Position numbers and translations under genes: made by a program. From IMG/VR virus record IMGVR_UViG_3300022670_000211, positions 1 through 62,495 of that record: a stretch of 62,495 nt of DNA, one strand, 5' to 3'. The stretch is from a virus. This document shows, in pieces, positions 1 to 62,495 of the stretch (within the stretch, counting starts at the first letter, position 1; every line of letters begins with the position of its first letter). The notes beneath the pieces were generated by a model that was not told the DNA's origin, made no database searches, and saw only the letters and a list, made by a program, of their open reading frames with translations.

Positions 1-144
1 CTAATGCCCATAAAATTTTTTACTCCTTACATTACTTTTTTCATTTCTAAAACTGTGAAATCCGCGGTTTCGGCTGCTACTATTTCTACCGAGTCAAGTT
101 CATAGCATCGTCCATCGTGCATGTTACGCCCCGATAATGTTTCA
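1..144. repeat. Terminal overlap copy A, identical to 62352-62495
   Basis: Read directly: ctaatgcccataaaatttt...ccgataatgtttca is present at both window ends, 144/144 identical. Confidence 0.95.
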
Positions 145-557: not shown

Positions 558-872
558 CTAATAAAATTCTTCGTCTGCTATTTTGCCATGGAAACACATG
601 GCTAACTTTTTAACCTGATCCGCATCTTTTATCTTAGTTATGCCGTTTTTAAGATAACCATCATGGTCGTACTCAATACGAGAATCGACCACATTACTTG
701 AGTCATTACCTGTTAAGTGTACCCAGTAATCACCGTTACTACATCGAGCTAACTCAATATGACCACCACCAAACTTGATAATTAAATGTGTTGGCTCGGG
801 GTGTCGCTTATCACCTCTCACATGAATAGTAAGGGCGTCTTCTGATGTAGTTTGTTTAAATGACTTAGCCAT
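558..872 (-). CDS. hypothetical early protein (104 aa)
   Basis: The track ORF 558-917 starts at a GTG inside repeat element E1; the internal ATG at 872 carries the conserved GAGGATCAGAAC-ATG initiation region. Confidence 0.6.
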   Translation of the reverse strand: MAKSFKQTTSEDALTIHVRGDKRHPEPTHLIIKFGGGHIELARCSNGDYWVHLTGNDSSNVVDSRIEYDHDGYLKNGITKIKDADQVKKLAMCFHGKIADEEFY

Positions 873-890
873 GTTCTGATCCTCATTTGA

Positions 891-937
891 TGTATGTTTC
901 ACATAGCCAGCTATCACAAACTGGCTATAAAAAACGC
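891..937 (-). promoter_or_regulatory. Early intergenic hairpin cassette E1
   Basis: Minus sense reads GCGTTTTTTATAGCCAG-tttgtgatag-CTGGCTATGTGAAACATACA; the stem is ATAGCCAG/CTGGCTAT and the element ends 18 nt before the ATG at 872. Confidence 0.7.
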
Positions 938-954
938 ATCGTCATTGTGTATGG

Positions 955-1527
955 CTAGCTGCTGTGTTTTTCCACAACCTGTACCACTGCTAATTCGAAT
1001 TGGTCTAGCTTCGGCATTTCATAAGCCATCGGCACTGCTGATAAATTATTCCGCATTATTAGCGCTATGAACAAGCCCGCTAATTCTTCCATAGCGTCAT
1101 AGACGAAAACACCGCTAAGATGCCGATCATCTTCTAAAGCAATATCAACGCATTTATTTATCAATTGAGCAAACGGGAATAACTCCAGAACAAAACAGTC
1201 CTCACCGATACCGAATAGGTCGCCTATGCTATCTGGTGATTGTTTGATCACCTCTTCGGCAAAGTAATGTAAATACATAGCGTCTACTGCCGCGTCGTTA
1301 TTTTTTATTGATAGCTGTTTTTCGAGCTCTGCTATCTGCTCGGCTTGTTGGTCAATGAACTGTTCAACTAGACTCACTTCAAAACGTGTGTCGTCGTCGT
1401 CACCGTTAAGCGCGTCATATATTGTGACTAGTGCATTATTGATTAGCATTTTATTAACTGTTACTGGTATTGGTGTGTCTAACGTGTTGTTAAAGGCTAT
1501 TGGTTTAATGTTTGATGTATCTTTCAT
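955..1527 (-). CDS. acidic hypothetical early protein (190 aa)
   Basis: ORF with GAGGATCAGACC-ATG; D/E-rich with a DDDD run. Confidence 0.65.
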   Translation of the reverse strand: MKDTSNIKPIAFNNTLDTPIPVTVNKMLINNALVTIYDALNGDDDDTRFEVSLVEQFIDQQAEQIAELEKQLSIKNNDAAVDAMYLHYFAEEVIKQSPDSIGDLFGIGEDCFVLELFPFAQLINKCVDIALEDDRHLSGVFVYDAMEELAGLFIALIMRNNLSAVPMAYEMPKLDQFELAVVQVVEKHSS

Positions 1528-1550
1528 GGTCTGATCCTCATTGGTTTTGA

Positions 1551-1599
1551 TAGTGTGCTTCTAATAGCCAGCTAATATCTAAATGGCTATACAAAGCGC
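1551..1599 (-). promoter_or_regulatory. Early intergenic hairpin cassette E2
   Basis: Minus sense reads GCGCTTTGTATAGCCA-loop-TGGCTATTAGAAGCACACTA; it shares the exact 23-nt block AGCTGGCTATTAGAAGCACACTA with E3 and E4. Confidence 0.75.
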
Positions 1600-2063
1600 T
1601 ATTTAATGACTTTTAGTTGGTCAACTCTAAATTGATCAATGCAATCGACACAGTGATCAATTGTTTTTCGTTCTTCGCACTCGGGTAAGGCGTCCATTAG
1701 CTCAGATAGTGACGCGTCAACGGCTGTTCTAAGTTCGGCTAGTTGTGAGTCTTTGATTCTTAGGTGAACTAAGCCAACTTCAAAAGCTTCGGCAAGGTCT
1801 TGGTAATCTAATTGTGAATTAAAGCTAGTATCTTCAATTACTGATAAAGGTATATATTTCTTATTCCGTACTAAGCCGATAGATACCATGTCATAGCCTA
1901 AGCACTCGCACGTTGCCTTAATGGCTGCTGATACGTTATACATAGCTGAATATGACGCCTCGTCGATTTGCACTACATATACAGCGCCATCACCTAACGC
2001 GCTGGTGTAGCCTTTTTGGTCGTTGGTATAGTCTCTTAATATTACTAATTGTGTGGTGTCCAT
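1599..2063 (-). CDS. hypothetical protein, paralogue of the 11095-11661 product
   Basis: Shared blocks IKATCxCxG, L(A/H)EAFE(V/F)GL and CxDxID; the ATG at 2063 has AGGAATAAGACC-ATG; the longest ORF extends to 2105. Confidence 0.6.
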   Translation of the reverse strand: MDTTQLVILRDYTNDQKGYTSALGDGAVYVVQIDEASYSAMYNVSAAIKATCECLGYDMVSIGLVRNKKYIPLSVIEDTSFNSQLDYQDLAEAFEVGLVHLRIKDSQLAELRTAVDASLSELMDALPECEERKTIDHCVDCIDQFRVDQLKVIK

Positions 2064-2104
2064 GGTCTTATTCCTTTTTGGTAAAAATAATGATATATCC
2101 GGCA

Positions 2105-2308
2105 TTACATATGCTTCAATAGTTTTAGTGTTTCGTCTTGCTTAGTACCTAGAAGATACCCGTAATATATCGCCGCTATTAGGGCTTTGTCTAAGTTTCC
2201 TGCGAAGAATGGAAACTCAATTGTGTCGAGTGACTTTGCATTGTAATTAGCTATAAATTCCTCGTCCTTTTTAGCTAACTTATAAACATAATTTATTTTC
2301 TTGCTCAT
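2105..2308 (-). CDS. hypothetical early protein (67 aa)
   Basis: ORF with conserved GAGGATCAGACC-ATG. Confidence 0.6.
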   Translation of the reverse strand: MSKKINYVYKLAKKDEEFIANYNAKSLDTIEFPFFAGNLDKALIAAIYYGYLLGTKQDETLKLLKHM

Positions 2309-2367
2309 GGTCTGATCCTCGTTTTGGTTTATCTGGTATAAAAGCTAATATTCGCTAGCATTAAAAG

Positions 2368-2634
2368 CTAGTATTCGAATTCTTCGATATCCGTTTGGTG
2401 TGGTTGGTCGGTCACAAAGTAAAACATACGGTTAACGAATGCAAAACCATGAACCACTATTAATACGCCATCGCAATCGAGCACTGTCCATATGCGATCT
2501 TGATCGGTGATATCCATAATATCGACATAGCCCCAAGATGGATCGCGCCCATCGATATCACAGCTACCGTCAGGCGTGTTCGATTCCGTTAGTGTTAGGT
2601 CTTGTTCGTCTAGGTATTGAAAAAAGTCTTTCAC
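2368..2634 (-). CDS. hypothetical early protein (88 aa, acidic)
   Basis: ORF tightly packed against the next gene. Confidence 0.6.
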   Translation of the reverse strand: MKDFFQYLDEQDLTLTESNTPDGSCDIDGRDPSWGYVDIMDITDQDRIWTVLDCDGVLIVVHGFAFVNRMFYFVTDQPHQTDIEEFEY

Positions 2635-2635
2635 G

Positions 2636-2860
2636 TTACGCCCCTTGTTTAATAACTAGGCTTAAATTTAAGTTCATTAGCTCATGGCATAACTCGTCGC
2701 GTTGGTCAGCGGTCAAGTATATTATATTGCCAGCTAGAACTATTTCGGCTTGTTCTATATATAGGTCGTCGTCGTAAACAGTGCCTATTACTAAGTTACC
2801 TGTCTTTGAAAACAGGGCGCCGTTTTTCTTGTACTCAACTTTTTGCATAACTTTTGCCAT
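2636..2860 (-). CDS. hypothetical early protein (74 aa)
   Basis: ORF with conserved GAGGATCAGATC-ATG, preceded by E3. Confidence 0.6.
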   Translation of the reverse strand: MAKVMQKVEYKKNGALFSKTGNLVIGTVYDDDLYIEQAEIVLAGNIIYLTADQRDELCHELMNLNLSLVIKQGA

Positions 2861-2878
2861 GATCTGATCCTCGTTCGT

Positions 2879-2927
2879 TAGTGTGCTTCTAATAGCCAGC
2901 TATTGATAAACTAGCTATACAAAGCGC
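2879..2927 (-). promoter_or_regulatory. Early intergenic hairpin cassette E3
   Basis: Minus sense reads GCGCTTTGTATAGCTAG-tttatcaatag-CTGGCTATTAGAAGCACACTA; the stem has a U-G wobble in minus-sense RNA. Confidence 0.75.
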
Positions 2928-2930
2928 TAA

Positions 2931-3377
2931 CTAAGATAAGTTAACTTTGTTTTTTAGATGTAAAAAGAAACCATAGCCGCGTGAAAAATTGATAGGCTTT
3001 TGGTACTTAGTTATTTTTGCCCAAGTATGTAAAAGGCTTAAATCCCACTGTGTTAATTGCGCGGGATCTCTATGAAAACCAATGTGTGCAGATAAACGCG
3101 CCTTAGCAGTCTTTCTGGTGATACCCGATCCGTGGTAACATTTTCCTACATTATTTCGCGCTTCAATAATTAAGCGGGCGATACATTGGCGCGGTGAACC
3201 TCCCTCAATGCAATCGTGACAAACATCTTCACCGTTCTCGTCTATGAAATGAAGATCAAGAGCCTTGTAGCCGTTACGCTCCTTTGCCTTAAATAAAACA
3301 TTGCTACCGGATTCAACTAATACTTCGTTAAAATAATGAACCTCGGCTTTTAGGTCTTTAATCGTTACGCGTGACAT
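2931..3377 (-). CDS. hypothetical early protein (148 aa)
   Basis: ORF with GAGGATCAGATT-ATG. Confidence 0.65.
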   Translation of the reverse strand: MSRVTIKDLKAEVHYFNEVLVESGSNVLFKAKERNGYKALDLHFIDENGEDVCHDCIEGGSPRQCIARLIIEARNNVGKCYHGSGITRKTAKARLSAHIGFHRDPAQLTQWDLSLLHTWAKITKYQKPINFSRGYGFFLHLKNKVNLS

Positions 3378-3388
3378 AATCTGATCCT

Positions 3389-3538
3389 CTATGCGGTAGT
3401 TGCTATTACTAATGTATTCATATCTATAGCGTTGGTGTCGTGTAATTCGAGAATTAACTCTGCCAGCTCTATATAACTAGTGGTTGATGAAAAATAAGCA
3501 GTGCCGTCGTGGTACTGAGCATTTAAGGTATATGACAT
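3389..3538 (-). CDS. small ORF (49 aa, not in track)
   Basis: My translation is MSYTLNAQYHDGTAYFSSTTSYIELAELILELHDTNAIDMNTLVIATTA; GAGGA lies upstream and E4 ends 18 nt before the ATG. Confidence 0.45.
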   Translation of the reverse strand: MSYTLNAQYHDGTAYFSSTTSYIELAELILELHDTNAIDMNTLVIATTA

Positions 3539-3556
3539 TATTTGTCCTCGTTTGGT

Positions 3557-3605
3557 TAGTGTGCTTCTAATAGCCAGCTAAACGCTAACTAGCTATACAA
3601 AGCGC
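3557..3605 (-). promoter_or_regulatory. Early intergenic hairpin cassette E4
   Basis: Minus sense reads GCGCTTTGTATAGCTAG-ttagcgtttag-CTGGCTATTAGAAGCACACTA. Confidence 0.75.
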
Positions 3606-3612
3606 TAATCGA

Positions 3613-3783
3613 TTAGTCCGAATCGCGGTCTTGTCTCGCTTTTTCAGCTATCGCCCATAAGGCTTTTTTCTGCGCTACTGGTCGTTCTTCATTGCCCATG
3701 CGCTGCGCTTCATGCGCTCGCTCGTTTGGGTTCATGTTTTGCAGGTCTAAAACTCTTTGTACATCGTTATTATATCGTGGCAT
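3613..3783 (-). CDS. hypothetical early protein (56 aa)
   Basis: The internal ATG at 3783 has GAGGATCAACCC-ATG and avoids overlapping the RadC-like gene; the track ORF runs to 3852. Confidence 0.5.
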   Translation of the reverse strand: MPRYNNDVQRVLDLQNMNPNERAHEAQRMGNEERPVAQKKALWAIAEKARQDRDSD

Positions 3784-3823
3784 GGGTTGATCCTCTTTCT
3801 GGTTGGTGGTGGGTATTAAAAAA

Positions 3824-4447
3824 TTAGAAAGGCATTTTACCGCGTTCTGCATAGCTCATGGTTCCGGCAGGGCTAACAATGATGTGATCAAGTACTCGCA
3901 GCTCTAAGGTATTAGCCGCTGCACATATCTTTTTGGTGATCAGGTCGTCGGCTACTGATGAACTAAGCGTACCGGATGGGTGATTATGAGATAAGATCAT
4001 AGCGGTCGCGTTTAGTTCAAGGGCGCGTTTGATGATTTCTTTAGGGTAGACCGCTGCGGCGTCACTAGTACCGACGAACATTTCCTCATAGGCAATAACA
4101 CGGTGCTGGTTATTCATGAAGATAACCGCGAATATTTCACGCTCGCTAGTGCCAATCTTTAGCTGTAAAAATTGGCGTGTTAACTCGGTGCTTGTTAAAT
4201 GGTTAGCGGGGTCTTGGTTAACTAGTTTACTAGCTAATATCTCGATAGCGTGGTTAATAACCTCTTGCTCCGCGGCATTGTATTTATCACTAGTGCTGAA
4301 ACGATCCACTATATTACTTGTATCCATTCTGATCGCTGCTTCTTGCTCGCTCATTAGTTGTGGGGTCGTGGCTAATGGCGTGTTATGTTTTAACGTGGAT
4401 ACTAGTTTTAATGCTTCTCTTCTTGCAGGGTTGTTTAGATTATGCAC
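3824..4447 (-). CDS. radC: RadC-like JAB/MPN domain protein
   Basis: C-terminal half has the JAMM-type signature LSHNHPSG plus the upstream E and downstream D typical of the RadC family; GTG start. Confidence 0.8.
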   Translation of the reverse strand: MHNLNNPARREALKLVSTLKHNTPLATTPQLMSEQEAAIRMDTSNIVDRFSTSDKYNAAEQEVINHAIEILASKLVNQDPANHLTSTELTRQFLQLKIGTSEREIFAVIFMNNQHRVIAYEEMFVGTSDAAAVYPKEIIKRALELNATAMILSHNHPSGTLSSSVADDLITKKICAAANTLELRVLDHIIVSPAGTMSYAERGKMPF

Positions 4448-4978: not shown

Positions 4979-5014
4979 GGTGTTTACTCCTTTATACGTT
5001 AAATCGTCGTTAAA

Positions 5015-5043
5015 AGTATAGGATGATATAGTATATGTGTCAA
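5015..5043 (-). promoter_or_regulatory. Sigma70-type early leftward promoter
   Basis: Minus strand reads TTGACA (5043-5038), a 17-nt spacer, then TATACT (5020-5015), about 36 nt before the ATG at 4978. Confidence 0.75.
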
Positions 5044-5108
5044 GATTAGACCCTAGAACGCTATGACGACCTCATAGGTAGCCTAATATTAGCACTTAAA
5101 CAATACGA

Positions 5109-5255
5109 GATTTCGTCGATTGTTGAGAAAAAGGGTTAAAAACCTCATATGTTTCAGCCAAAAGCTATGATGTTTTTTAGACCGTTTTAAAGGGTTGTAG
5201 CCAGCCCGCACTATGTGGGGGTGGAAAAGGGAACAGTCGGGATTTCGTCGATTGT
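5109..5255. repeat. 15-nt exact direct repeat GATTTCGTCGATTGT (5109-5123 and 5241-5255)
   Basis: Read directly; the related core TCGTCGATT also occurs at 8367-8375. Confidence 0.8.
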
Positions 5256-5507
5256 GATTTATTACGTGGTACGTGTCTGATATCACAAGGCTTTTTATCA
5301 CTGCGATGTTTTGGCTATTAAACGCGACGGAACAAGCGACGATACTCTTAGAAGCCTTATAGACTAAAGGCTGTAGAATACGAGATCATCTTAGGGCTAG
5401 TTTCTGGGAAAATCTAAAAACTATTAAGAAACACTATATATAACTAATAATAACACTAATAATAATACTATATAAATCTTCTTAAATGTTGTTCCCTTAA
5501 TCTTTAG

Positions 5508-5627
5508 TAGTCTATATTACTGATAAATAATAAATTAAAAGGGAACAACGGAAGTTCCCAAACTCCTTTTTCTGTCCCCCCTTGTTCCCTTTCAGTTAAA
5601 ACCTATAGTTATCAGTAATATAGACTA
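5508..5627. repeat. 19-bp perfect inverted repeat (5508-5526 and 5609-5627) enclosing GGGAAC/GTTCCC boxes
   Basis: tagtctatattactgataa pairs with ttatcagtaatatagacta; boxes lie at 5541-5546, 5554-5559 and 5584-5589, with more at 5229-5234 and 5491-5496; an AT-rich tract lies at 5400-5490. Confidence 0.85.
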
Positions 5628-5653
5628 TTGAGGGCTATTGTATATTATAATTG

Positions 5654-5706
5654 TTGACAATATGATGGCGTTTGTTTAGGGTATTAGTTCTATGAAGTGC
5701 TATAAT
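5654..5706 (+). promoter_or_regulatory. Candidate rightward promoters
   Basis: TTGACA at 5654-5659 with a weak TAGGGT 17 nt downstream; an extended -10 TGcTATAAT at 5698-5706, 32 nt before the ATG at 5738. Confidence 0.55.
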
Positions 5707-5737
5707 TTATAGGTTCCACTTAATCGAGGTCTAACCA

Positions 5738-6819: not shown

Positions 6820-7086
6820 CTACTGCTTTAGTTTAGCGGTCTCATCACAAATGAAGTGTTGAAGTTCCATTCTTAGTTCATGCGTATGTGAGCCATACAA
6901 TAGGCTTTGTAACATGATCCTGACCTCTTGGTTATCGGTGTTACTAATCGCTTTAGTGATCACCACCTCGCTATAATACTCACCTTGTACGATGGCTTGT
7001 AAATCTTGCAAGTGCTGCCTAGTGAATAACTTAGGCGCGTTTGTTATACCTCTGCCGATATCATATGAACTATTCATCTTAAGCAC
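6820..7086 (-). CDS. hypothetical protein (88 aa)
   Basis: ORF. Confidence 0.6.
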   Translation of the reverse strand: MLKMNSSYDIGRGITNAPKLFTRQHLQDLQAIVQGEYYSEVVITKAISNTDNQEVRIMLQSLLYGSHTHELRMELQHFICDETAKLKQ

Positions 7087-7297
7087 CCCTTATCATGTTA
7101 ATAATATCTGATCTCTTGCGGTTAACTTCTCGCATTAAGTATGACGTATCATCATGCGTGCGGCATGTAGCCATATGGTCAAAATCCATTTTTACTGAAC
7201 ACATTAGATAATTACATCGTTGTCTATCACCCACCTTTAAAAAGGCTTTATCTATCATTTTTCTAAGTTGTTTAGTGTTCATGATTTTACACTCCAA
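7079..7297 (-). CDS. hypothetical protein (72 aa)
   Basis: ORF overlapping its neighbours by a few nt. Confidence 0.55.
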   Translation of the reverse strand: MECKIMNTKQLRKMIDKAFLKVGDRQRCNYLMCSVKMDFDHMATCRTHDDTSYLMREVNRKRSDIINMIRGA

Positions 7298-7698
7298 TAG
7301 TCTTGACCGTCTAGGATGATAAAACAGTCTTTATCAGTTGGCGTGCTATATCGAACGCATTTAAAACTATGACCAATGTGTTTAGTGTTCGCGTCGTCAT
7401 AGTGTAGTTGTATGTCATGCTTGCGATTGTTACGCACTAGCACTAGCTTTTGATGATAAGCATTTAAAGCTAAGCGTTTAACCTCTGCCATATCATGACT
7501 GCTGTTAGTGTGAATAATAAATACTTGTTTCACACTTGATGGATCGACACTAATTGCTCGTATTGCGTGCACGTGGTAGTGATGTTCTAAACGGTCGAAT
7601 AATCGTTCCGTGTCGATCATATTCTCTAAAGCGTTGTTCGTAGCACGATACGCGCTAACTATAACGGTGTATTTCCTATCCGTATCTAAAGTGTTCAT
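7279..7698 (-). CDS. hypothetical protein (139 aa)
   Basis: ORF with AGAGG upstream. Confidence 0.65.
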   Translation of the reverse strand: MNTLDTDRKYTVIVSAYRATNNALENMIDTERLFDRLEHHYHVHAIRAISVDPSSVKQVFIIHTNSSHDMAEVKRLALNAYHQKLVLVRNNRKHDIQLHYDDANTKHIGHSFKCVRYSTPTDKDCFIILDGQDYWSVKS

Positions 7699-7750
7699 TA
7701 GTTTATACCTCTAAAAAGTAGCTAAAAGCGGGTGGCTAAAAGACACGCGC

Positions 7751-8294
7751 CCCGTGCCAAAAGTCTAAAAACTCGCCCATATGTTCAATTCATTAAGACA
7801 AGTAAACGAAATTTCGTAGATATCACACGGATATTTAACAATTACACAATATGTCGCATCTTCTAGCGCTACCGCGTCATTATTCTGGTGGCATCTAATA
7901 TACCAGTCGTGTTGTTTGATACTTGCTAAGTGTTCGTGCTTAATGTCGTTAGTTTCAATGTCCATTTGCTTACCCTCACAATGTGTTAGTTGATACACGG
8001 CTAAAGATAGACGGGCATTTGCTACTTGTCAAGGTCATTTGTCCGGTACTCGTAGCATTTGACACGGGATCAGCTACGAAATAGGGGTATTCTGTTGATT
8101 CTAATGGGTAATTGCCCACTGAGTTATACTTTAGCCACAAGGGATCGCGCTACAAGTCAATGAAAACGGGGTTATGTCCGCGGGCGCATGTATAGTGTTT
8201 TCGAAATTTTGGGCTGTGACTGGACCCGGACCCGTGGCAAAAATCACGAAAAACCGACCCCCTATGCCCCCTTTTCAGAACCTTTTTGCACGGG
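7751..8294. promoter_or_regulatory. Four copies of the motif TTT[GT]NCACGGG in a divergent control region
   Basis: 8058-8068 (+) TTTGACACGGG; 8283-8294 (+) TTTTTGCACGGG; 8231-8243 (-) TTTTTGCCACGGG; 7751-7763 (-) CTTTTGGCACGGG. Confidence 0.6.
7765..7965 (-). CDS. hypothetical protein (66 aa)
   Basis: The ATG at 7965 has GAGGGTAAGCAA-ATG; the track ORF starts at a GTG at 7998. Confidence 0.55.
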   Translation of the reverse strand: MDIETNDIKHEHLASIKQHDWYIRCHQNNDAVALEDATYCVIVKYPCDIYEISFTCLNELNIWASF

Positions 8295-36279: not shown

Positions 36280-38745
36280 ATGAGCAGAGATAGAACAGTT
36301 GGCGATACCTTTTTTATCGCTTTCACAACAAGGGCTTTCGCCACTGGTATTCCTACAGTCTTAGCAGGTACGCCGGTAGTATCAGCCTATGAAGACGCCG
36401 GATTAACTCAAATAACGGCGGGTATTACCCTAGGTGTCGATCACGACGGTGTGGTCGGTATGAATATGCTTACTATTGTCGCTACAGGCGGTAACGGTTT
36501 CGAGTCAGGGAAAGATTATAATTTAGCACTAACTGCCGGTACCGTAGGTGGCGTTTCAGTTGTTGGTGAAATCGTAGGCCAATTCTCACTAGGCTTATCC
36601 GCTGCTGCCGTAGATTTAGCGAATGGTACAGACGGCCTTACAGCCTTAAAAACTGGGCTCGATGACGTTCCAACAGTCTCAGAATTTAACGCGAGGACTT
36701 TAGTAGCTGCAAGTTACTTTGATCCCGCAGCCGACGCCGTAGCAAACGTCACGTTAACAGCGACCACGACTGCAGTAACCAACCAAGTTACCGCTAACAT
36801 GACCGCGATATCAGGTGATTCTACCGCGGCAGATAATTTAGAGGCTATGTACGATGGTAGTGGCTATATCGACGATACTGCGCCAGCTTCACGGTCCCAG
36901 GTTGACAATATTAGTGTTATCGGTGGTGGTGCCGTTAACTTTAACCCTGAAAGTTCTAACGTTACCGGTGCGATAAAATCGATAACTTTTGTCGGTGTTC
37001 AGACCTCAGGAACTTTTGCAGATACCTTCACGCTTAATAGCGTTTTCCACGTTATAGACGATACGACTAACGAAATTGATCTCGTTTATAGTATTGACGT
37101 TACGGCTGTTAACTTAGCCTCAGAAGTTATTATCGCGGGTTTCTTGAATAGCGGTAATGATGAAATGAATATCCTAGCCTATGATTTTGTAGGTGTAGCT
37201 TGGGAGCAAATAGAAACCTTAGAAGGCCAAGGCGGGTCTTCTAACGTCACCATAACCGCGCCGTTATTAGTGCGTCATACTGGTACTACAGGCGCTGATA
37301 CGGGTAAGGTTCTAATTCGTATTCAGAATACCGGTCAATCAAACCCTACACTACAAATAGATAGATTAATTGTCCAAGCAGTATCTAACATAACTACATT
37401 AGGTTTTGTTGACGGTGCTGTATGGGTTAACACTCTAAATGGGACTAGTGGTACTGCTGAGGGAGTGGGGTTTATCGACAATCCGTCGGATAATTTAGCT
37501 GATGCGTATACGATTGCGACGGCTAATAACTTAACAAGATTCCAAATAGCCACCGGGTCTGCTGTAACGCTACCGGCGACGTCATCAGCCCGTGAGATAA
37601 TGGGTCAAAAATATACCGTAGCACTTAACAGTGCTGATATTAACGGGACTACAATTACGGGGTCCTCAGCTATAACAGGTATCGGTAATTGTTCAACGAC
37701 TGCAGCGTCGTTCTTTTCTTGCGGTATCGGTGACGTAACTATAGACCCCTGTAATGGTTTTGAATGTGGGTTCTTTGGTACCTTTACGCTTCGAAGTGAA
37801 GGTGTATATGTATTCGGCGGTAGTGCTGCGCTTACTGCGCCTGGTTTAGGTATGGTCATTGACTTTGGATCTGGCTTAAACGCGTCGTCATGGTCTATGC
37901 AGTCATGGGGTGGTGGTACTATAGAAGTTCAAAATATGGGCGCTGGTACCGGGTCTTATAATATGGAGGCTAGTGGCTGGGGTGATTTCACTATCAACGC
38001 CAACTGTAGCGCGACCTCTACTGTAGATTTACACGGTAACTTTGTTCTAACGAATAATGCGAGCGGTATAACCGTAACTGAAGATGCTAATTATATGGAA
38101 AGTATATTAGTAGATGCGGTCTTAGACGAGGCATTAAGTGGTCACACTTCCGCAGGTTCTTTAGGTAAAGCGGTTACTGATATCGAAACGGATGCGACAG
38201 CTATTTTAGCCGATACTACCGAAATCGGCACCGCTGGCGCTGGTTTAACAGACCTTGGTGGTATGTCAACAGGTATGAAAGCCGAAGTGAATGTAGAAGC
38301 GGACACGGCGCTAACTGATTATGATGGCCCGACTAACGCAGAAATGGAGGCGAGAACCTTAGTAGCTGCTAGTTACTTTGACCCCGCTGCCGATGCTGTG
38401 GCAAACGTTACTTTAGTAGCGACCACTACCGACGTAACGAACCAAGTTACAGCAAACGTAACAGCGATTAGCGGTGACAGTGCAGCCGCGGATAGCCTAG
38501 AAGCTTCATTAGAAACTTTAGTTACTGGTACCGCTACTGGCGTACCGACTACGACTACCATGGCAGACAGCACGTTAACCGAAGCAACCGACGATCACTT
38601 TAACGGACGTGTAATTATTTGGAGAACTGGCGCTTTAAAACAACAAGCCACAGATATCACAAGTTATAACGGTACCACTAAAACGTTCACCTTTACGGCT
38701 ACGACTAACGCAGCTAGCGCCGGTGATGCGTATGTGATCGTCTAA
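36280..38745 (+). CDS. tail fibre or spike protein (821 aa) with an internal 52-aa duplication
   Basis: ARTLVAASYFDPAADAVANVTL.ATTT.VTNQVTAN.TAISGDS.AAD.LEA occurs twice. Confidence 0.6.
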   Translation: MSRDRTVGDTFFIAFTTRAFATGIPTVLAGTPVVSAYEDAGLTQITAGITLGVDHDGVVGMNMLTIVATGGNGFESGKDYNLALTAGTVGGVSVVGEIVGQFSLGLSAAAVDLANGTDGLTALKTGLDDVPTVSEFNARTLVAASYFDPAADAVANVTLTATTTAVTNQVTANMTAISGDSTAADNLEAMYDGSGYIDDTAPASRSQVDNISVIGGGAVNFNPESSNVTGAIKSITFVGVQTSGTFADTFTLNSVFHVIDDTTNEIDLVYSIDVTAVNLASEVIIAGFLNSGNDEMNILAYDFVGVAWEQIETLEGQGGSSNVTITAPLLVRHTGTTGADTGKVLIRIQNTGQSNPTLQIDRLIVQAVSNITTLGFVDGAVWVNTLNGTSGTAEGVGFIDNPSDNLADAYTIATANNLTRFQIATGSAVTLPATSSAREIMGQKYTVALNSADINGTTITGSSAITGIGNCSTTAASFFSCGIGDVTIDPCNGFECGFFGTFTLRSEGVYVFGGSAALTAPGLGMVIDFGSGLNASSWSMQSWGGGTIEVQNMGAGTGSYNMEASGWGDFTINANCSATSTVDLHGNFVLTNNASGITVTEDANYMESILVDAVLDEALSGHTSAGSLGKAVTDIETDATAILADTTEIGTAGAGLTDLGGMSTGMKAEVNVEADTALTDYDGPTNAEMEARTLVAASYFDPAADAVANVTLVATTTDVTNQVTANVTAISGDSAAADSLEASLETLVTGTATGVPTTTTMADSTLTEATDDHFNGRVIIWRTGALKQQATDITSYNGTTKTFTFTATTNAASAGDAYVIV
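36691..36846 (+). repeat. Duplicated segment copy 1 (partner at 38350-38505)
   Basis: Roughly 85 percent aa identity and roughly 75 percent nt identity to its partner, estimated by eye. Confidence 0.8.
38350..38505 (+). repeat. Duplicated segment copy 2 (partner at 36691-36846)
   Basis: See copy 1. Confidence 0.8.
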
Positions 38746-59582: not shown

Positions 59583-59606
59583 GACCCCTTAAAACCCAGG
59601 CAAATA

Positions 59607-59637
59607 AAAAGCCCTTATTGAGTATAAGGGCTTTTTT
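59607..59637. terminator. Strong bidirectional rho-independent terminator
   Basis: AAAAAGCCCTTAT-tgagt-ATAAGGGCTTTTTT between convergent genes. Confidence 0.85.
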
Positions 59638-59706: not shown

Positions 59707-60696
59707 CTAAAACTTCCTCTGTATCTTAGCGTCTAGTATTTTATCGATTCGAGCGCCCGCGGCTCTTACTTGGGCTACGGTCATTTTCTTCATCATTAAG
59801 CTAACCGCTTTCCCTGCTGTTTTATGACCTTCAAGGCTCGCCAATGTTAACCACATAAAAGCAGATTCAATGTTACGGTCTGTGCCATCGCCTAAGTAAT
59901 ACATGTTCCCTAATCTAAACTGAGCGTCAGGATACCCAAGTTTTGCCGCAATTGTGTAATATTTTAGCGCTTTAGTTTTATCTACCGGTGCGCCTCGACC
60001 TTGATAATATGCTAGCCCGACATTGTACGCGGCAAATTTGTTACCTTTATCAGCACTCATTTTGTACCATGCTAGCGCTTTGTTAAGGTTTATCTCCACA
60101 CCACGGCCTAGTTCGTACACGATACCGATATAATACTCAGCTCTATGTGATCCTTGCTTCGATGCTTTGATGAACCACGACAACGCTTTGTTATAATCTT
60201 GCTTAGTACCACGGCCTAAATAGAACATCACGCCTAAATCTACTTGAGCTTCGGCTAATCCACCATCAGCAGCAGCTTTAAAATACCGAAAAGCTATTAC
60301 TCGGGTTTGGTTATCGTTACCGTACCGATCATACAGTTCGCCTAACTTAGCGCTAGCTTCTAAATATCCTTGTTGATGGGCTAAATGTAGCCATTCTATC
60401 GCTCTACCTAAGTCCTGACCCACTATCATCCCCTCGTAATAGTAAAGCCCTAATTTGTACTGTGCGGCGGCGTCACCCGCGTTCGCTTTTTTCTCTAAAG
60501 CACTGGCTATTTTTAACAAGTCCATCAAATGCGCTTGCGTTTCGACACCATCGACCCCGTATGTTTTATCAAGTGCTACGTCTTGGGCGTTCGCTGTTAC
60601 GACGGCTGATACCGCGAGCGCTAGTGCTAGGATGATATGCGCTAGCACTATTGCGATTACTTTATGTTTGGTCTTTAAATTTTTAAAATATTTCAT
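59707..60696 (-). CDS. secreted Sel1-like repeat (SLR/TPR-type) protein
   Basis: Signal peptide MKYFKNLKTKHKVIAIVLAHIILALALAVSAVVTANA-QD; at least six repeats of the type A..WY.KAA.QG...AQ..LG.MY..G.G...D; the track ORF starts 13 codons upstream. Confidence 0.75.
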   Translation of the reverse strand: MKYFKNLKTKHKVIAIVLAHIILALALAVSAVVTANAQDVALDKTYGVDGVETQAHLMDLLKIASALEKKANAGDAAAQYKLGLYYYEGMIVGQDLGRAIEWLHLAHQQGYLEASAKLGELYDRYGNDNQTRVIAFRYFKAAADGGLAEAQVDLGVMFYLGRGTKQDYNKALSWFIKASKQGSHRAEYYIGIVYELGRGVEINLNKALAWYKMSADKGNKFAAYNVGLAYYQGRGAPVDKTKALKYYTIAAKLGYPDAQFRLGNMYYLGDGTDRNIESAFMWLTLASLEGHKTAGKAVSLMMKKMTVAQVRAAGARIDKILDAKIQRKF

Positions 60697-60703
60697 GATA
60701 CTT

Positions 60704-60901
60704 TTACCCTTTACGTTTATTAGTCTTTGTTTCATTTATGCTGGTGATAATCACGCTACTAGCATAACCACCAAAATCTTTAGCGACACCGTTTTGCGCG
60801 TCACTCATTGCTTGCTCTAATGTTTCGGCACTGATAGTACCGTCACCTGTTGCTTTACATGACTTACTTTTATAACTGAACTTAAACTTAAAATGCTTCA
60901 T
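60704..60901 (-). CDS. hypothetical protein (65 aa)
   Basis: ORF. Confidence 0.5.
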   Translation of the reverse strand: MKHFKFKFSYKSKSCKATGDGTISAETLEQAMSDAQNGVAKDFGGYASSVIITSINETKTNKRKG

Positions 60902-60904
60902 TGG

Positions 60905-61189
60905 TTATTTCTCCCGCTCGTAATATACAACTTCTACTATTTTTAACGTGATTAGTAACAAGCGCCATGCTGAGTACGGCATTTGTCGGTTATCGAACTT
61001 ATTACGTGGTACCTCCCATTTAGCGACGGTCGATGATCCTTTATCAGTCCAGCGAACGCCTACTATTTTGGCAACGTCAATTTGAGTTAAGCCGAATTCT
61101 TTTCTTAACCTTTGAAGATCGCCAGGACCGGGCGGCTCAATATTTCTATCGGTAGCTAATAATTTACAATTCTCTTTAATATAACTCAT
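60905..61189 (-). CDS. XRE-family HTH protein (YiaG/antitoxin-like)
   Basis: LQRLRKEFGLTQIDVAKIVGV....STVAKWE...PYSAWRLLL. Confidence 0.65.
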   Translation of the reverse strand: MSYIKENCKLLATDRNIEPPGPGDLQRLRKEFGLTQIDVAKIVGVRWTDKGSSTVAKWEVPRNKFDNRQMPYSAWRLLLITLKIVEVVYYEREK

Positions 61190-61192
61190 AGG

Positions 61193-61735
61193 CTATTTTT
61201 CCTTAATGATTTTGACTCTGTGGCCTAATTTCTCTTCAATTTCGGCTACGGTTAGTTCGATAGCATGTAAAGGCGTAAAAGCATAACTAACCATTTCTCT
61301 AAGTGCCGAAAGTCCGCTGTTCGTCATACATGCGCGCCCCACATATTCGTTCTTTGGCTGAATATGCCATTTATCGGTATTCACGAAAACAGGCGGGTGC
61401 ATCATAGCGAAAGTTAGTGCGTCCTGTTCCAGTTCGCGCTTTAGCCTTGCTTCGGCTCTCCGGCGATTTTCTAGCTCTGAGTGAAAAGACGCTAGACTTT
61501 TATACTGCTTACCGTTTAGCCAAAATTCTGAGACTCGATCATTATTCTCTAGCACCGCCGCGCCGTATTCATTGTGCAACTTGCCATGCTGGTACCAAGC
61601 CTTGCGACCGTAGGCGGATATCACCGCCGGTGCTCCTTCTCGGTGATAATCGTTAGTACCTGCAAGGTGCCAATACTCGCTCCCGCTATCGTAAACGTTT
61701 ACTTTATATGTGGTCATGATTATTGTCTCTGACAT
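61193..61735 (-). CDS. MORN-repeat (variant) protein with the C-terminal AEIEEKLGHRVKIIK motif
   Basis: YWHLAGTNDYHREGAPAV..YGRKAWYQHGKLHNEYGAAV; the alternative start at 61717 is coupled to the upstream small ORF. Confidence 0.6.
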   Translation of the reverse strand: MSETIIMTTYKVNVYDSGSEYWHLAGTNDYHREGAPAVISAYGRKAWYQHGKLHNEYGAAVLENNDRVSEFWLNGKQYKSLASFHSELENRRRAEARLKRELEQDALTFAMMHPPVFVNTDKWHIQPKNEYVGRACMTNSGLSALREMVSYAFTPLHAIELTVAEIEEKLGHRVKIIKEK

Positions 61736-61899: not shown

Positions 61900-61922
61900 A
61901 AGCTCTTTTCCTCTTGGTTTAA

Positions 61923-61970
61923 TAGAATGTTTCTAATAGCCAGCTATCGCAAACTGGCTATACAAAACGC
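61923..61970 (-). promoter_or_regulatory. Early intergenic hairpin cassette E5
   Basis: Minus sense reads GCGTTTTGTATAGCCAG-tttgcgatag-CTGGCTATTAGAAACATTCTA. Confidence 0.7.
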
Positions 61971-62290
61971 TATTTAATGACTTTAATTTTATAGCCTAAT
62001 TTCTTTTCAATTTCGGCTATGGTCATATCCGTAGTCTGGTTCAATGCGGCGGCGTGTCCTGCTTTGGTACATTTCTTACCATCAAGCCACCACTCGCGGC
62101 CACCGTCGGTATCTTCAACCGCCGGTCCCTGGGTCCTGTGCAACTTGCCAAGCTTATACCAGTATTTATCACCGTTACATGTCTGAGCGGGTAAATCACC
62201 TTCTCTGTGCCTTTGACCATTTATTAGCCACGTTTCGCTGGCGTGGGTATGTGTGCTTTCTTCTACTACTTCTACTTGATATGTAAGCAT
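61970..62290 (-). CDS. MORN-repeat (variant) protein with the C-terminal AEIEKKLGYKIKVIK motif
   Basis: WLINGQRHREGDLPA..NGDKYWYKLGKLHRTQGPAVEDTDGGREWWLDGKK; the ATG at 62290 has AGGAG 8 nt upstream; the track ORF extends to 62362. Confidence 0.65.
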   Translation of the reverse strand: MLTYQVEVVEESTHTHASETWLINGQRHREGDLPAQTCNGDKYWYKLGKLHRTQGPAVEDTDGGREWWLDGKKCTKAGHAAALNQTTDMTIAEIEKKLGYKIKVIK

Positions 62291-62351: not shown

Positions 62352-62495
62352 CTAATGCCCATAAAATTTTTTACTCCTTACATTACTTTTTTCATTTCTA
62401 AAACTGTGAAATCCGCGGTTTCGGCTGCTACTATTTCTACCGAGTCAAGTTCATAGCATCGTCCATCGTGCATGTTACGCCCCGATAATGTTTCA
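62352..62495. repeat. Terminal overlap copy B, including a partial second copy of the 27-359 gene at 62378-62495
   Basis: Exact repeat of 1-144; the boundaries fall inside coding sequence. Confidence 0.95.

Follow-up and report, generated by a model that had tools for sequence, protein, structure and literature searches.

The leftward early operon of an uncultured phage, whose genome is represented by the IMG/VR record IMGVR_UViG_3300022670_000211 (62,495 nucleotides (nt), the whole of which is referred to here as the window), is punctuated by five copies of a hairpin element, E1 to E5. The hairpins belong to a structured RNA family which is new to Rfam and which is carried by a clade of uncultured marine phages, a conclusion that is well supported by the data. 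Judging from their sequences, the five hairpins are further predicted, with moderate confidence, to be processing or stability signals for the RNase III of the host, analogous to the early sites of phage T7, and the element is most likely a new sequence family of a signal type that is already known. A preliminary description of the same DNA had offered an RNA processing or stability site, the operator of a translational regulator and a phage-specific promoter as candidate roles. The first of these is the best supported, and it can be narrowed to a site of the RNase III type because the invariant base pairs of the hairpin match the published rules for the distal and proximal boxes of RNase III substrates; the promoter role is not supported.

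The five elements and their operon

The first 144 nt of the window are exactly duplicated in its last 144, so that the window represents a phage genome of about 62.35 kilobases (kb) assembled in circularly closed or permuted form. Because of this terminal duplication, E5 is contiguous with E1 to E4 across the circular junction, as had been proposed, and all five belong to a single leftward operon, whose path, given the permuted assembly, runs from 4978 to 1 and then from 62351 to 59707, a distance of about 10 kb with more than 20 small genes. The promoter which precedes the first of these genes has comparable counterparts upstream of the operon in two related contigs (L004 and L007), and is the presumed origin, to judge from its consensus match and position, of a polycistronic transcript carrying all five hairpins. 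The operon ends in a canonical intrinsic terminator, and the same terminator is present in L004, L007 and a third related contig, L005.

1..144 (= 62352-62495), no strand: terminal duplication, by sequence identity
5015..5043, minus strand: sigma-70-type promoter TTGACA-17-TATACT, 11 of 12 matches in a consensus scan, preceding the first operon gene (ATG 4978)
59602..59636, minus strand: canonical intrinsic terminator AAAAAAGCCCUUAUACUCAAUAAGGGCUUUUUAUUU, from sequence, at the end of the leftward operon

The five copies were recovered where the preliminary description had placed them on the minus strand, and each lies on the coding strand in an intercistronic gap of the one early operon. As had been reported, the 23-mer TAGTGTGCTTCTAATAGCCAGCT (plus-strand spelling) is exact at 1551, 2879 and 3557 (E2, E3 and E4); it recurs with 3 mismatches at 61923, none being expected from 100 shuffles. 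The distances from the previously recognised elements to the following start codons, given as 18-23 nt, were measured as 18, 23, 18, 18 and 23 nt. With a covariance model derived from the relatives, the five copies obtain 66-79 bits, and the next best match in the 62.5-kb window 10.5 bits. Other dimensions have had to be revised. The size of about 47 nt was an underestimate, the hairpin being 56-57 nt long with two more helices below the stem first recognised, and the apical loop, thought to have 10-13 nt, has only 5-7 nt, since the upper stem continues with G-C, U.G and U-A pairs. The count of five holds for intact copies, to which a degraded sixth copy must be added.

E1, 887..942, minus strand: covariance model 70 bits; RNAfold -23.5 kcal/mol, z = -4.9; basal stem GAUG/CAUC, middle-stem U-A, internal loop of the UU/GU type; arms 928-919 and 912-903; predicted RNase III cut 901/900 (3' strand); next ATG 872
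E2, 1548..1604, minus strand: covariance model 65.7 bits; fold -17.6 kcal/mol; basal stem AUAG/CUAU, whose UAG is the stop codon of the upstream gene for a protein of 154 amino acids (aa); middle stem C-G; single U.C mismatch below the distal box; arms 1590-1581 and 1573-1564; predicted cut 1562/1561; ATG 1527
E3, 2876..2932, minus strand: covariance model 70.6 bits; fold -23.8 kcal/mol; basal stem GUUAG/CUAAC, middle stem C-G; arms 2918-2909 and 2901-2892; predicted cut 2890/2889; ATG 2860
E4, 3554..3610, minus strand: covariance model 66.1 bits; basal stem UUAG/CUAA, middle stem C-G; arms 3596-3587 and 3579-3570; predicted cut 3568/3567; ATG 3538
E5, 61920..61975, minus strand: covariance model 78.9 bits; fold -22.3 kcal/mol; basal stem AAUAG/CUAUU, whose UAG is the stop codon of the upstream gene; middle stem U-A; arms 61961-61952 and 61945-61936; predicted cut 61934/61933; ATG 61899
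2326..2370, minus strand: relic of a sixth copy, seen in alignment A6 and missed by the covariance model; of the hairpin, the 5' half is lost and the 3' arm, which follows 32/34 nt of the 32-nt apical-loop insert known from L004 and L007, is degraded

Secondary structure and covariation

RNAfold resolves the hairpin into three helices, basal, middle and upper, of 4-8 base pairs (bp), 5 bp and 10-12 bp respectively, under an apical loop of 4-7 nt. The basal and middle helices are separated by a 1x3 internal loop in which C lies opposite A-Y-W, and the middle and upper helices by a 1x1 or 2x2 loop; the middle helix pairs G-Y-U-U-U with R-A-A-R-C, and the upper helix pairs AUAGCYAGUU with AGCUGGCUAU. 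In the folding set of 20 correctly extracted copies, 18 adopt this three-helix fold, the two others (L009_827 and L014_1030) being without the basal stem. Fold energies range from -17 to -30 kcal/mol and z from -2.7 to -8.9, and the sense strand is more stable than the antisense strand in every one of the 20. Two orthologous copies, in L004 and L007, carry a 32-nt insert in the apical loop which forms a hairpin of its own. The inserted module, UUAGCUUUUAAUGCUAACGAGUAUUAGCUUUUAU, is 32-34 nt long (L004 9925-9958, L007 2097-2130) and combines this small hairpin with an internal direct repeat; a lone relic of it lies in the window at 2326-2370 on the minus strand.

Because MAFFT misaligned the GAUG/CAUC basal stems, shifting them in alignments A1 and A2, an ungapped alignment (A3) was forced with artificial GC anchors, which occupy columns 1-12 and 96-111 of A3 and are not real sequence. 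On A3, standard pairs make up 94.8% of the pair cells, compared with 32-44% when the partners are slid, and the figure for the alignment of all 27 known copies is 94.6%. Five pairs of A3 change on both sides, and the covariation score was reached by none of 500 shuffles. The preliminary description had called for a covariance-model search of related phages for compensatory changes; in these relatives the pairing is kept, and compensatory, both-sided changes are found at 9 of the 21 pairs, four of them in the basal helix, one in the middle helix and four in the upper helix. The basal helix occurs as AUAG/CUAU, UUAG/CUAA, GAUG/CAUC, GAUG/CGUC and GUAG/CUAU; the covarying pair of the middle helix is C-G in 6 copies and U-A in 15, with no exception; and the changes at the four upper-stem pairs, which come from distant IMG/VR copies, replace A-U by C-G, G-C by A-U or U-A, and U.G by G-C. 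Compensatory differences separate even copies within one genome (E1, E2 and E3 of the window; the copies at 3477 and 1727 in L016). The middle and upper helices are recovered independently by RNAalifold.

Wobble pairs of the U.G type account for 17% of the pair cells, one of them being invariant in 27/27 copies, and the hairpin can be assigned to the mRNA-sense strand because these wobbles would be A.C mismatches on the other strand. The covariance model gives the sense strand 56-79 bits and the antisense strand 14-39 bits. The covariation and the sense-only wobbles bear out the earlier proposal of a structure in the minus-sense transcript as opposed to a site in double-stranded DNA. It is accordingly very improbable that the element has its primary function in DNA, whether as a palindromic operator for an Xre-type helix-turn-helix (HTH) protein, as a boundary for site-specific recombination or for a mobile cassette, or as a hairpin for the replication of single-stranded DNA. 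The upper stem does form an inverted repeat, the operon encodes a conserved HTH protein (60905-61189), and the gene content between copies is variable, with one gene-order swap and several relics at elements. The arms of the repeat, however, are asymmetric in a manner which keeps G.U pairing (C is changed to T in the 5' arm of 18/27 copies), and the spacing between them varies over 5-32 nt; compensatory changes separate two copies of a single genome, covariation extends to two further helices which lie outside the palindrome, the distance to the Shine-Dalgarno (SD) sequence is fixed, and no recombinase adjoins the copies.

Distribution among related phages

The protein of 190 aa encoded between E2 and E1 has metagenome homologues at 46-57% identity, and the contigs of these homologues (L004, L005 and L007) share the operon and, in its gaps of about 70 nt, the element. 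Scanning the metagenomes of the Joint Genome Institute (JGI) with a DNA pattern yielded seven more contigs, and a looser pattern and a neighbouring protein between them yielded four IMG/VR contigs. The resulting collection comprises 27 copies, 26 of them distinct, from about 12 related metagenomic phage contigs, and all 27 lie on the coding strand in intercistronic gaps of the early operon and end 4-12 nt before the SD sequence. In the replication and structural part of one relative the covariance model found no copy, and a search for more relatives based on RadC returned an unrelated phage without the element.

In 185,579 bacterial and archaeal species genomes, a strict pattern gave 0 matches and a loose pattern gave 21 single matches, all of which score <=24 bits, compared with 56-79 bits for real copies, and are chance matches. 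These scans exclude a host repeat of the repetitive extragenic palindromic (REP) kind. Rfam 15 gave no match at gathering thresholds over the whole window, and nothing at the elements when positions 700-3900 were searched at E <= 5; nut and put elements, ribozymes, riboswitches, small RNAs and other known RNAs were rejected on this result. No tRNA or tmRNA was found, and a literature search with motif strings returned unrelated primers only.

Agreement with the recognition rules for RNase III

The rules for Escherichia coli RNase III, as derived from the T7 R1.1 site, specify an 11-bp helix from the loop to the cleavage site (PMC1540722). The distal box of this helix consists of U-A and then U.G, where the change of UG to AU causes a loss of more than 30-fold and the change of UG to GU a loss of 50-fold, and the proximal box, which ends at the scissile bond, consists of GC, AU/UA, AU and AU/UA; GC or CG at pb2 or pb4 are antideterminants, while the sequence and position of the loop are irrelevant to cleavage (PMC1540722). 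The upper stem of the element, read from the apical loop downward, presents the following pairs, with the internal loop directly after pb4:

db1: U-A, 27/27 copies
db2: U.G, 27/27 copies
spacer, 4 bp: variable, compensatory changes at 3/4 pairs
pb1: G-C, 23/27 copies
pb2: A-U, 27/27 copies
pb3: U-A, 27/27 copies
pb4: A-U, 27/27 copies

Both boxes are present with one deviation, pb3 being U-A and not A-U, and their register is the same as in T7 R1.1 (as reconstructed by folding of the T7 gap, in agreement with the numbered pairs in PMC1540722). The compensatory changes in the upper stem fall on three spacer pairs and pb1, while db1, db2 and pb2 to pb4 are constant. Boxes for RNase III would explain why the wobble is never repaired, why three loop-adjacent pairs are never G-C, and why the covariation lies mostly in the spacer. 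Hairpins with the box signature number 8 in the window, 5 of them being the elements, as against about 1 in shuffled sequence.

The geometry and location of the hairpins also agree with those of RNase III substrates. The ideal substrate is a helix of 22 bp, or two turns, and internal loops at the target site result in single-strand cleavage, which leaves 3' hairpins as stability determinants (PMC3867540). In the element, about 11 bp lie above the first internal loop and about 10-11 bp (with loops) below it, giving a two-turn helix of about 22 bp which is interrupted by internal loops and to which the basal stem contributes 4-6 bp, the middle stem 5 bp and the upper stem 10-11 bp. The hairpins are intercistronic and on the sense strand of an operon with one sigma-70 promoter and one terminator. 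The toleration of the 32-nt insert in the apical loop of L004 and L007 fits as well, because the sequence and position of the loop do not determine cleavage.

These specific constraints make it improbable that the element is a passive hairpin without a partner, acting as a barrier to 3'-5' exonucleases or as an insulator which uncouples translation, in the manner of intercistronic hairpins of the REP or puf type. Stability (-17 to -30 kcal/mol), occurrence only at junctions of genes which are not translationally coupled, and the maintenance of the structure by covariation would all suit such a role, but it needs only a stable stem, and so leaves unexplained the U.G wobbles never repaired in 27 copies, the three loop-adjacent A-U pairs which never become G-C, and the conservation of the two internal loops.

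Several points weigh against the assignment to RNase III. The rules derive from the E. coli enzyme and one substrate, and the match to the rules was noticed post hoc. At pb3 the pair is U-A where the optimum is A-U, pb1 is not G-C in 4/27 copies, and about 40% of the copies are without an extra loop-closing pair above the distal box; several real T7 sites are without the canonical UA/UG box, so the box is not necessary for membership in the class. Many of the copies are orthologous, and the independent compensatory events are therefore fewer than the cell counts suggest. Lastly, the RNase III rules give no obvious reason for the high conservation of the middle stem and of the 1x3-loop nucleotides (C opposite A-Y-W), and this leaves room for another, dedicated factor.

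Such a sequence-specific factor other than RNase III could be a phage RNA-binding protein which represses or activates translation of the downstream gene, or a phage endoribonuclease, and is considered unlikely. The near-invariance of the internal-loop nucleotides and middle stem, though the flanking proteins are only 46-56% identical, speaks for it, as do the position of the hairpin end 4-12 nt from the SD sequence, within the ribosome footprint, and the restriction of the element to one phage clade in scans of phage, metagenome and bacterial and archaeal sequences; the factor could also hide among the early-operon proteins, because most of these have no recognisable family. Against it, no RNA-binding or nuclease domain was found in 20 early proteins, the apical loop, in contrast to operators which are read through their loop, such as those of MS2 coat protein, lambda N-boxB and Cas6, varies freely and can take up a 32-nt insert, the RNase III boxes already account for the invariant pairs, and the downstream genes are unrelated to one another. 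There is a similarly small chance that the element is not, or not only, an RNase III site but the recognition element of a factor encoded by the clade itself, for instance an early protein without known relatives (an ORFan) which acts as a small endoribonuclease or regulates translation. If that were true, the phages would possess a private post-transcriptional regulon timing five blocks of early, probably anti-defence, genes, and the conserved middle stem and the C / A-Y-W loop would be the signature of the factor.

Comparison with T7 and other systems

The analogy between the predicted RNase III sites and those of T7 extends to their arrangement. T7 has five RNase III signals in an early mRNA of about 7 kb (PMC3867540). 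Like the elements, the T7 sites (R0.3, R0.5, R1, R1.1 and R1.3), which have relatives in Autographiviridae, form a set of five in one early operon transcribed by the host RNA polymerase, and the intercistronic gaps measure 62-80 nt in T7 (as folded) and 69-75 nt here. In both phages an irregular hairpin ends shortly before the next SD sequence and combines a conserved upper stem of about 10-11 bp containing wobbles with an internal loop, a lower stem which varies or covaries and an apical loop which is free, with the box register of R1.1 common to the two. Strong nucleotide conservation is likewise found in both: an R0.5-type site is 78-91% identical over 906 phage records from many genera, from which it follows that such conservation is normal for signals of the RNase III class.

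The element differs from the T7 sites in having two internal loops (1x1 or 2x2, plus 1x3) where T7 has one larger asymmetric loop, and in the U-A pair at pb3, unlike the optimum of the T7 rule. No sequence homology to T7 or T3 was detected, and the lack of a covariance-model match in the T7 early region makes the element an analogue and not a homologue. The window phage itself stands apart from the T7 lineage, having no RNA polymerase of the T7 type and a DNA polymerase which shares only about 30% identity with that of any cultured phage.

The preliminary description had compared the element with the promoter-stem-loop (PeSL) cassettes of T4-type phages, which consist of a terminator stem-loop, a sigma-70-like promoter (-35, N17, -10) and an SD sequence (PMC4122927). 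That comparison fails for the promoter and the terminator: no T-run is present, and a PeSL-type promoter cannot fit into the 4-12 nt between hairpin and SD sequence. It holds for the genomic setting: in both cases short conserved repeats stand ahead of the SD sequence and start codon of small early genes, the region is hyperplastic, degraded half-copies are found close to indels, and the repeats are plausible recombination substrates for the shuffling of open reading frames (ORFs) (PMC4122927). The variable gene content, a swap of the gene families F6 and F2 in L011, and relics in the window and L005 place the element in such a region of indels and ORF exchange. The hairpin described here is, in contrast to PeSL, much larger and supported by covariation.

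REP sequences and other mRNA-stabilising hairpins resemble the element in being repeated imperfect palindromes between operon genes, and they can protect upstream mRNA from 3' exonucleases. REPs, however, are host repeats with hundreds of copies, while the element is absent from the 185,579 species genomes and is subject to position-specific sequence constraints beyond stability.

Transcription signals

The elements are neither intrinsic terminators nor sigma-70 promoters, on both of which counts the preliminary description was right. They are absent from the terminator-like sites, and the hairpin is followed by an A-rich linker without a T-run; the hairpin-plus-U-tract terminator at 59636-59602 indicates that the phage and its host use ordinary intrinsic terminators, unlike the elements. 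A consensus scan for sigma-70 promoters was negative at every copy, and the candidate hexamers are spaced by 21 to about 47 nt, with a -10 candidate (TATTAG/TATGTG) which is without the T at -7. A sigma-54 promoter was rejected by eye, the GG-to-GC spacing being one nt short and the GC being absent in most copies.

The suggestion of a phage-specific promoter is not sustained, in that no RNA polymerase or sigma factor was found by Pfam searches of the ten largest and twenty early ORFs, PHROGs searches of ten ORFs, comparison of the two largest unknowns with PDB sequences, or a scan for catalytic motifs. A transcription-level role of any kind, as a promoter read by a phage polymerase not yet recognised or by a modified host polymerase (extruded hairpins like those of phage N4 included), as a pause site, or as a nut or put antitermination site, is highly unlikely. 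Its attractions are that about 25 nt of the 3' half are highly conserved, that the copies are oriented with the genes, and that, by eye, the type I tail CACACTAT recalls the promoter core of T7, SP6 and K11 and CGCUUUUUA recalls boxA. These promoter-like and boxA-like stretches, however, are paired and covarying (CUAU/AUAG, CUAA/UUAG and CAUC/GAUG; C-G versus U-A), as neither a fixed promoter core nor a single-stranded boxA could be. In addition, the copies do not match sigma-70 promoters, the TTGTAT-like and TATTAG-like hexamers vary in spacing as described, the polymerase and catalytic-motif searches and Rfam are negative, and no terminators lie between the copies which would need antitermination. 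Five nut or put sites in one operon would, to our knowledge, be unprecedented.

Individual candidates of this kind were rejected on similar grounds. In the case of a T7-, SP6- or K11-type promoter, CACACTAT is core-like yet paired and covarying, other copies have CATACATC or CACACTAA, and no single-subunit RNA polymerase is present; in the case of boxA or nut, the boxA-like CGCUUUUUA is base-paired and shows the C-G versus U-A covariation. N4 promoters have a 5-7-bp stem and a 3-nt loop and need a virion RNA polymerase of about 3,500 aa. The element shares with them the occurrence of several conserved hairpins in one orientation in the early region, but its stems total 19-22 bp and contain RNA-type wobbles, no such polymerase was found, and an ordinary sigma-70 promoter heads the operon.

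Three other identities were also discarded. A K-turn does not fit, no G.A pairs being seen by eye after the 3-nt bulge. A mimic of a repeat of the clustered regularly interspaced short palindromic repeat (CRISPR) type was considered, CTGGCTATTAGAAA resembling by eye the 3' end of the type I-F repeat; only 7/27 copies have TTAGAA, this stretch is paired with GUUUU, and the repeat is absent from the bacterial genomes scanned. Repeats like those of type III antitoxins were dismissed, the copies being dispersed and not tandem.

Proposed recombination at the elements

The proposal that the cassette mediates gene shuffling receives circumstantial support as far as recombination between copies is concerned, from the extended similarity of E2 and E5, the F6/F2 swap, the relics and chimeric copies; such recombination is better regarded as a by-product of repeats of 56-80 bp than as the work of a dedicated mobility mechanism. 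The genes upstream of E2 and E5 both end in KVIK-TAG, as the preliminary description had noted. The DNA identity of the two copies extends 11 nt further upstream of ATAGCG (AAAGTCATTAA), so that two unrelated proteins come to share the ending KVIK; in orthologues of the protein upstream of E2 the C-terminal ending is different. E2, E3 and E4 have the identical 23-nt block despite their differing basal stems. In L009_827 and L014_1030 a GAUG 5' half is joined to a CUAU 3' half, and the basal pairing of these chimeric copies is lost as a result.

Rearrangement at an element is seen in L011, where positions 417-2334 have the order F2, element, F6 in place of F6 and then F2 at element position 2 of the window, the junction of the rearrangement being an element. 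In L005 only the first 12 nt of one copy are left. The gene content between conserved element positions differs widely among the window, L004, L005, L007 and L016.

Proposed mechanism and implications

A mechanism based on RNase III may be outlined as follows. Host RNA polymerase would start at 5043-5015 and read about 10 kb to the terminator at 59636-59602, and in the transcript each intercistronic gap of about 70 nt folds, as the covariation shows, into a pseudo-helix of about 22 bp made up of the basal, middle and upper stems. The upper stem offers the U-A/U.G distal box, the 4-bp spacer and the G-C/A-U/U-A/A-U proximal box, and RNase III would cut at the internal loop below. According to the published rules, the cut in the 3' strand would fall two nt past the stem and before the invariant G (..GGCUAUGU|GAAAC or ..GGCUAUUA|GAAGC), and a cut in the 5' strand before AUAG may also be possible. 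The upstream message would keep an 11-bp 3'-terminal hairpin, shielding it from 3' exonucleases, and the downstream message would have a leader of 28-34 nt before the AUG, A-rich and unstructured, in which GAGGA forms a strong SD sequence. As a side effect, for which the evidence is circumstantial, the 56-80-bp repeats may feed homologous recombination or gene conversion and so reshuffle the small early genes.

If this mechanism is correct, the segmentation of a long early mRNA by RNase III is not limited to T7-like phages, and an unrelated marine phage lineage without an RNA polymerase of its own has reached it independently. The work would add a structured RNA family with 27 copies and 9 covarying pairs which is not in Rfam and which is a ready marker for the early operons of uncultured relatives. 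The cleavage sites are predicted to the single nucleotide and can be tested with commercial enzyme, and natural variation has in effect subjected the distal and proximal boxes to comparative mutagenesis. The copies mark junctions at which early, probably anti-defence, genes are exchanged, which helps to explain the plasticity of the region, and the compact hairpins could be useful as insulator parts in synthetic operons.

Other features of the genome

The gene set of the genome includes a large terminase (TerL), a portal-like protein, internal virion proteins, a tail spike, a family A DNA polymerase, a primase and an SNF2 helicase. A search for close cultured relatives with transcriptomes found none, megablast being without a match and the best identities being <=45% for TerL and <=33% for the DNA polymerase. 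In family searches with the large ORFs, one of 1137 aa proved to be an internal virion protein; another, of 821 aa in the virion module (36280-38745, plus strand), has no match in Pfam, PHROGs or PDB sequences.

Between the leftward operon and a divergent two-gene rightward unit lies a control region (4979-5737) which is dense in short repeats, with TTGTTCCC/GGGAACAA in several direct and inverted copies, two copies of ATCGACGAAATC(T/C)CG, and a 22-nt inverted repeat (5508-5529 / 5606-5627). These repeats may be operator sites or origin iterons. Motifs of the GGGAACA and CGACGAAAT types similar to those of the window occur in the equivalent region of L004 and L007.

The early region contains genes of the counter-defence or host-takeover type at about 6820-7965, 3824-4447 and 59707-60735, all on the minus strand, namely an S-AdoMet lyase (from the annotation of L002 and L004), a RadC-like JAB protein and a secreted or membrane Sel1-repeat protein; L004 has an additional Mom-like gene. 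Two paralogous proteins with MORN-like repeats (..WYKLGKLHR.., ..EWWLDGK..) are encoded at 61970-62290 and 61193-61735 on the minus strand and have the common C-terminal tail IAEIE(K/E)KLG(Y/H)(K/R)(I/V)K(V/I)IK, and this MORN-like family, F0, has 2-3 copies in relatives.

Near-identical ribosome-binding contexts, ACGAGGATCAGAYCATG, precede many gene starts of the operon (for example at 2311-2325, 3378-3392 and 873-890), with or without a hairpin upstream, and are found in relatives as well. The first 53 nt of L001, a JGI contig from the same phage, match window positions 3604-3656 in the orientation opposite to that of the rest of the contig, and are probably an assembly chimera adjoining E4.

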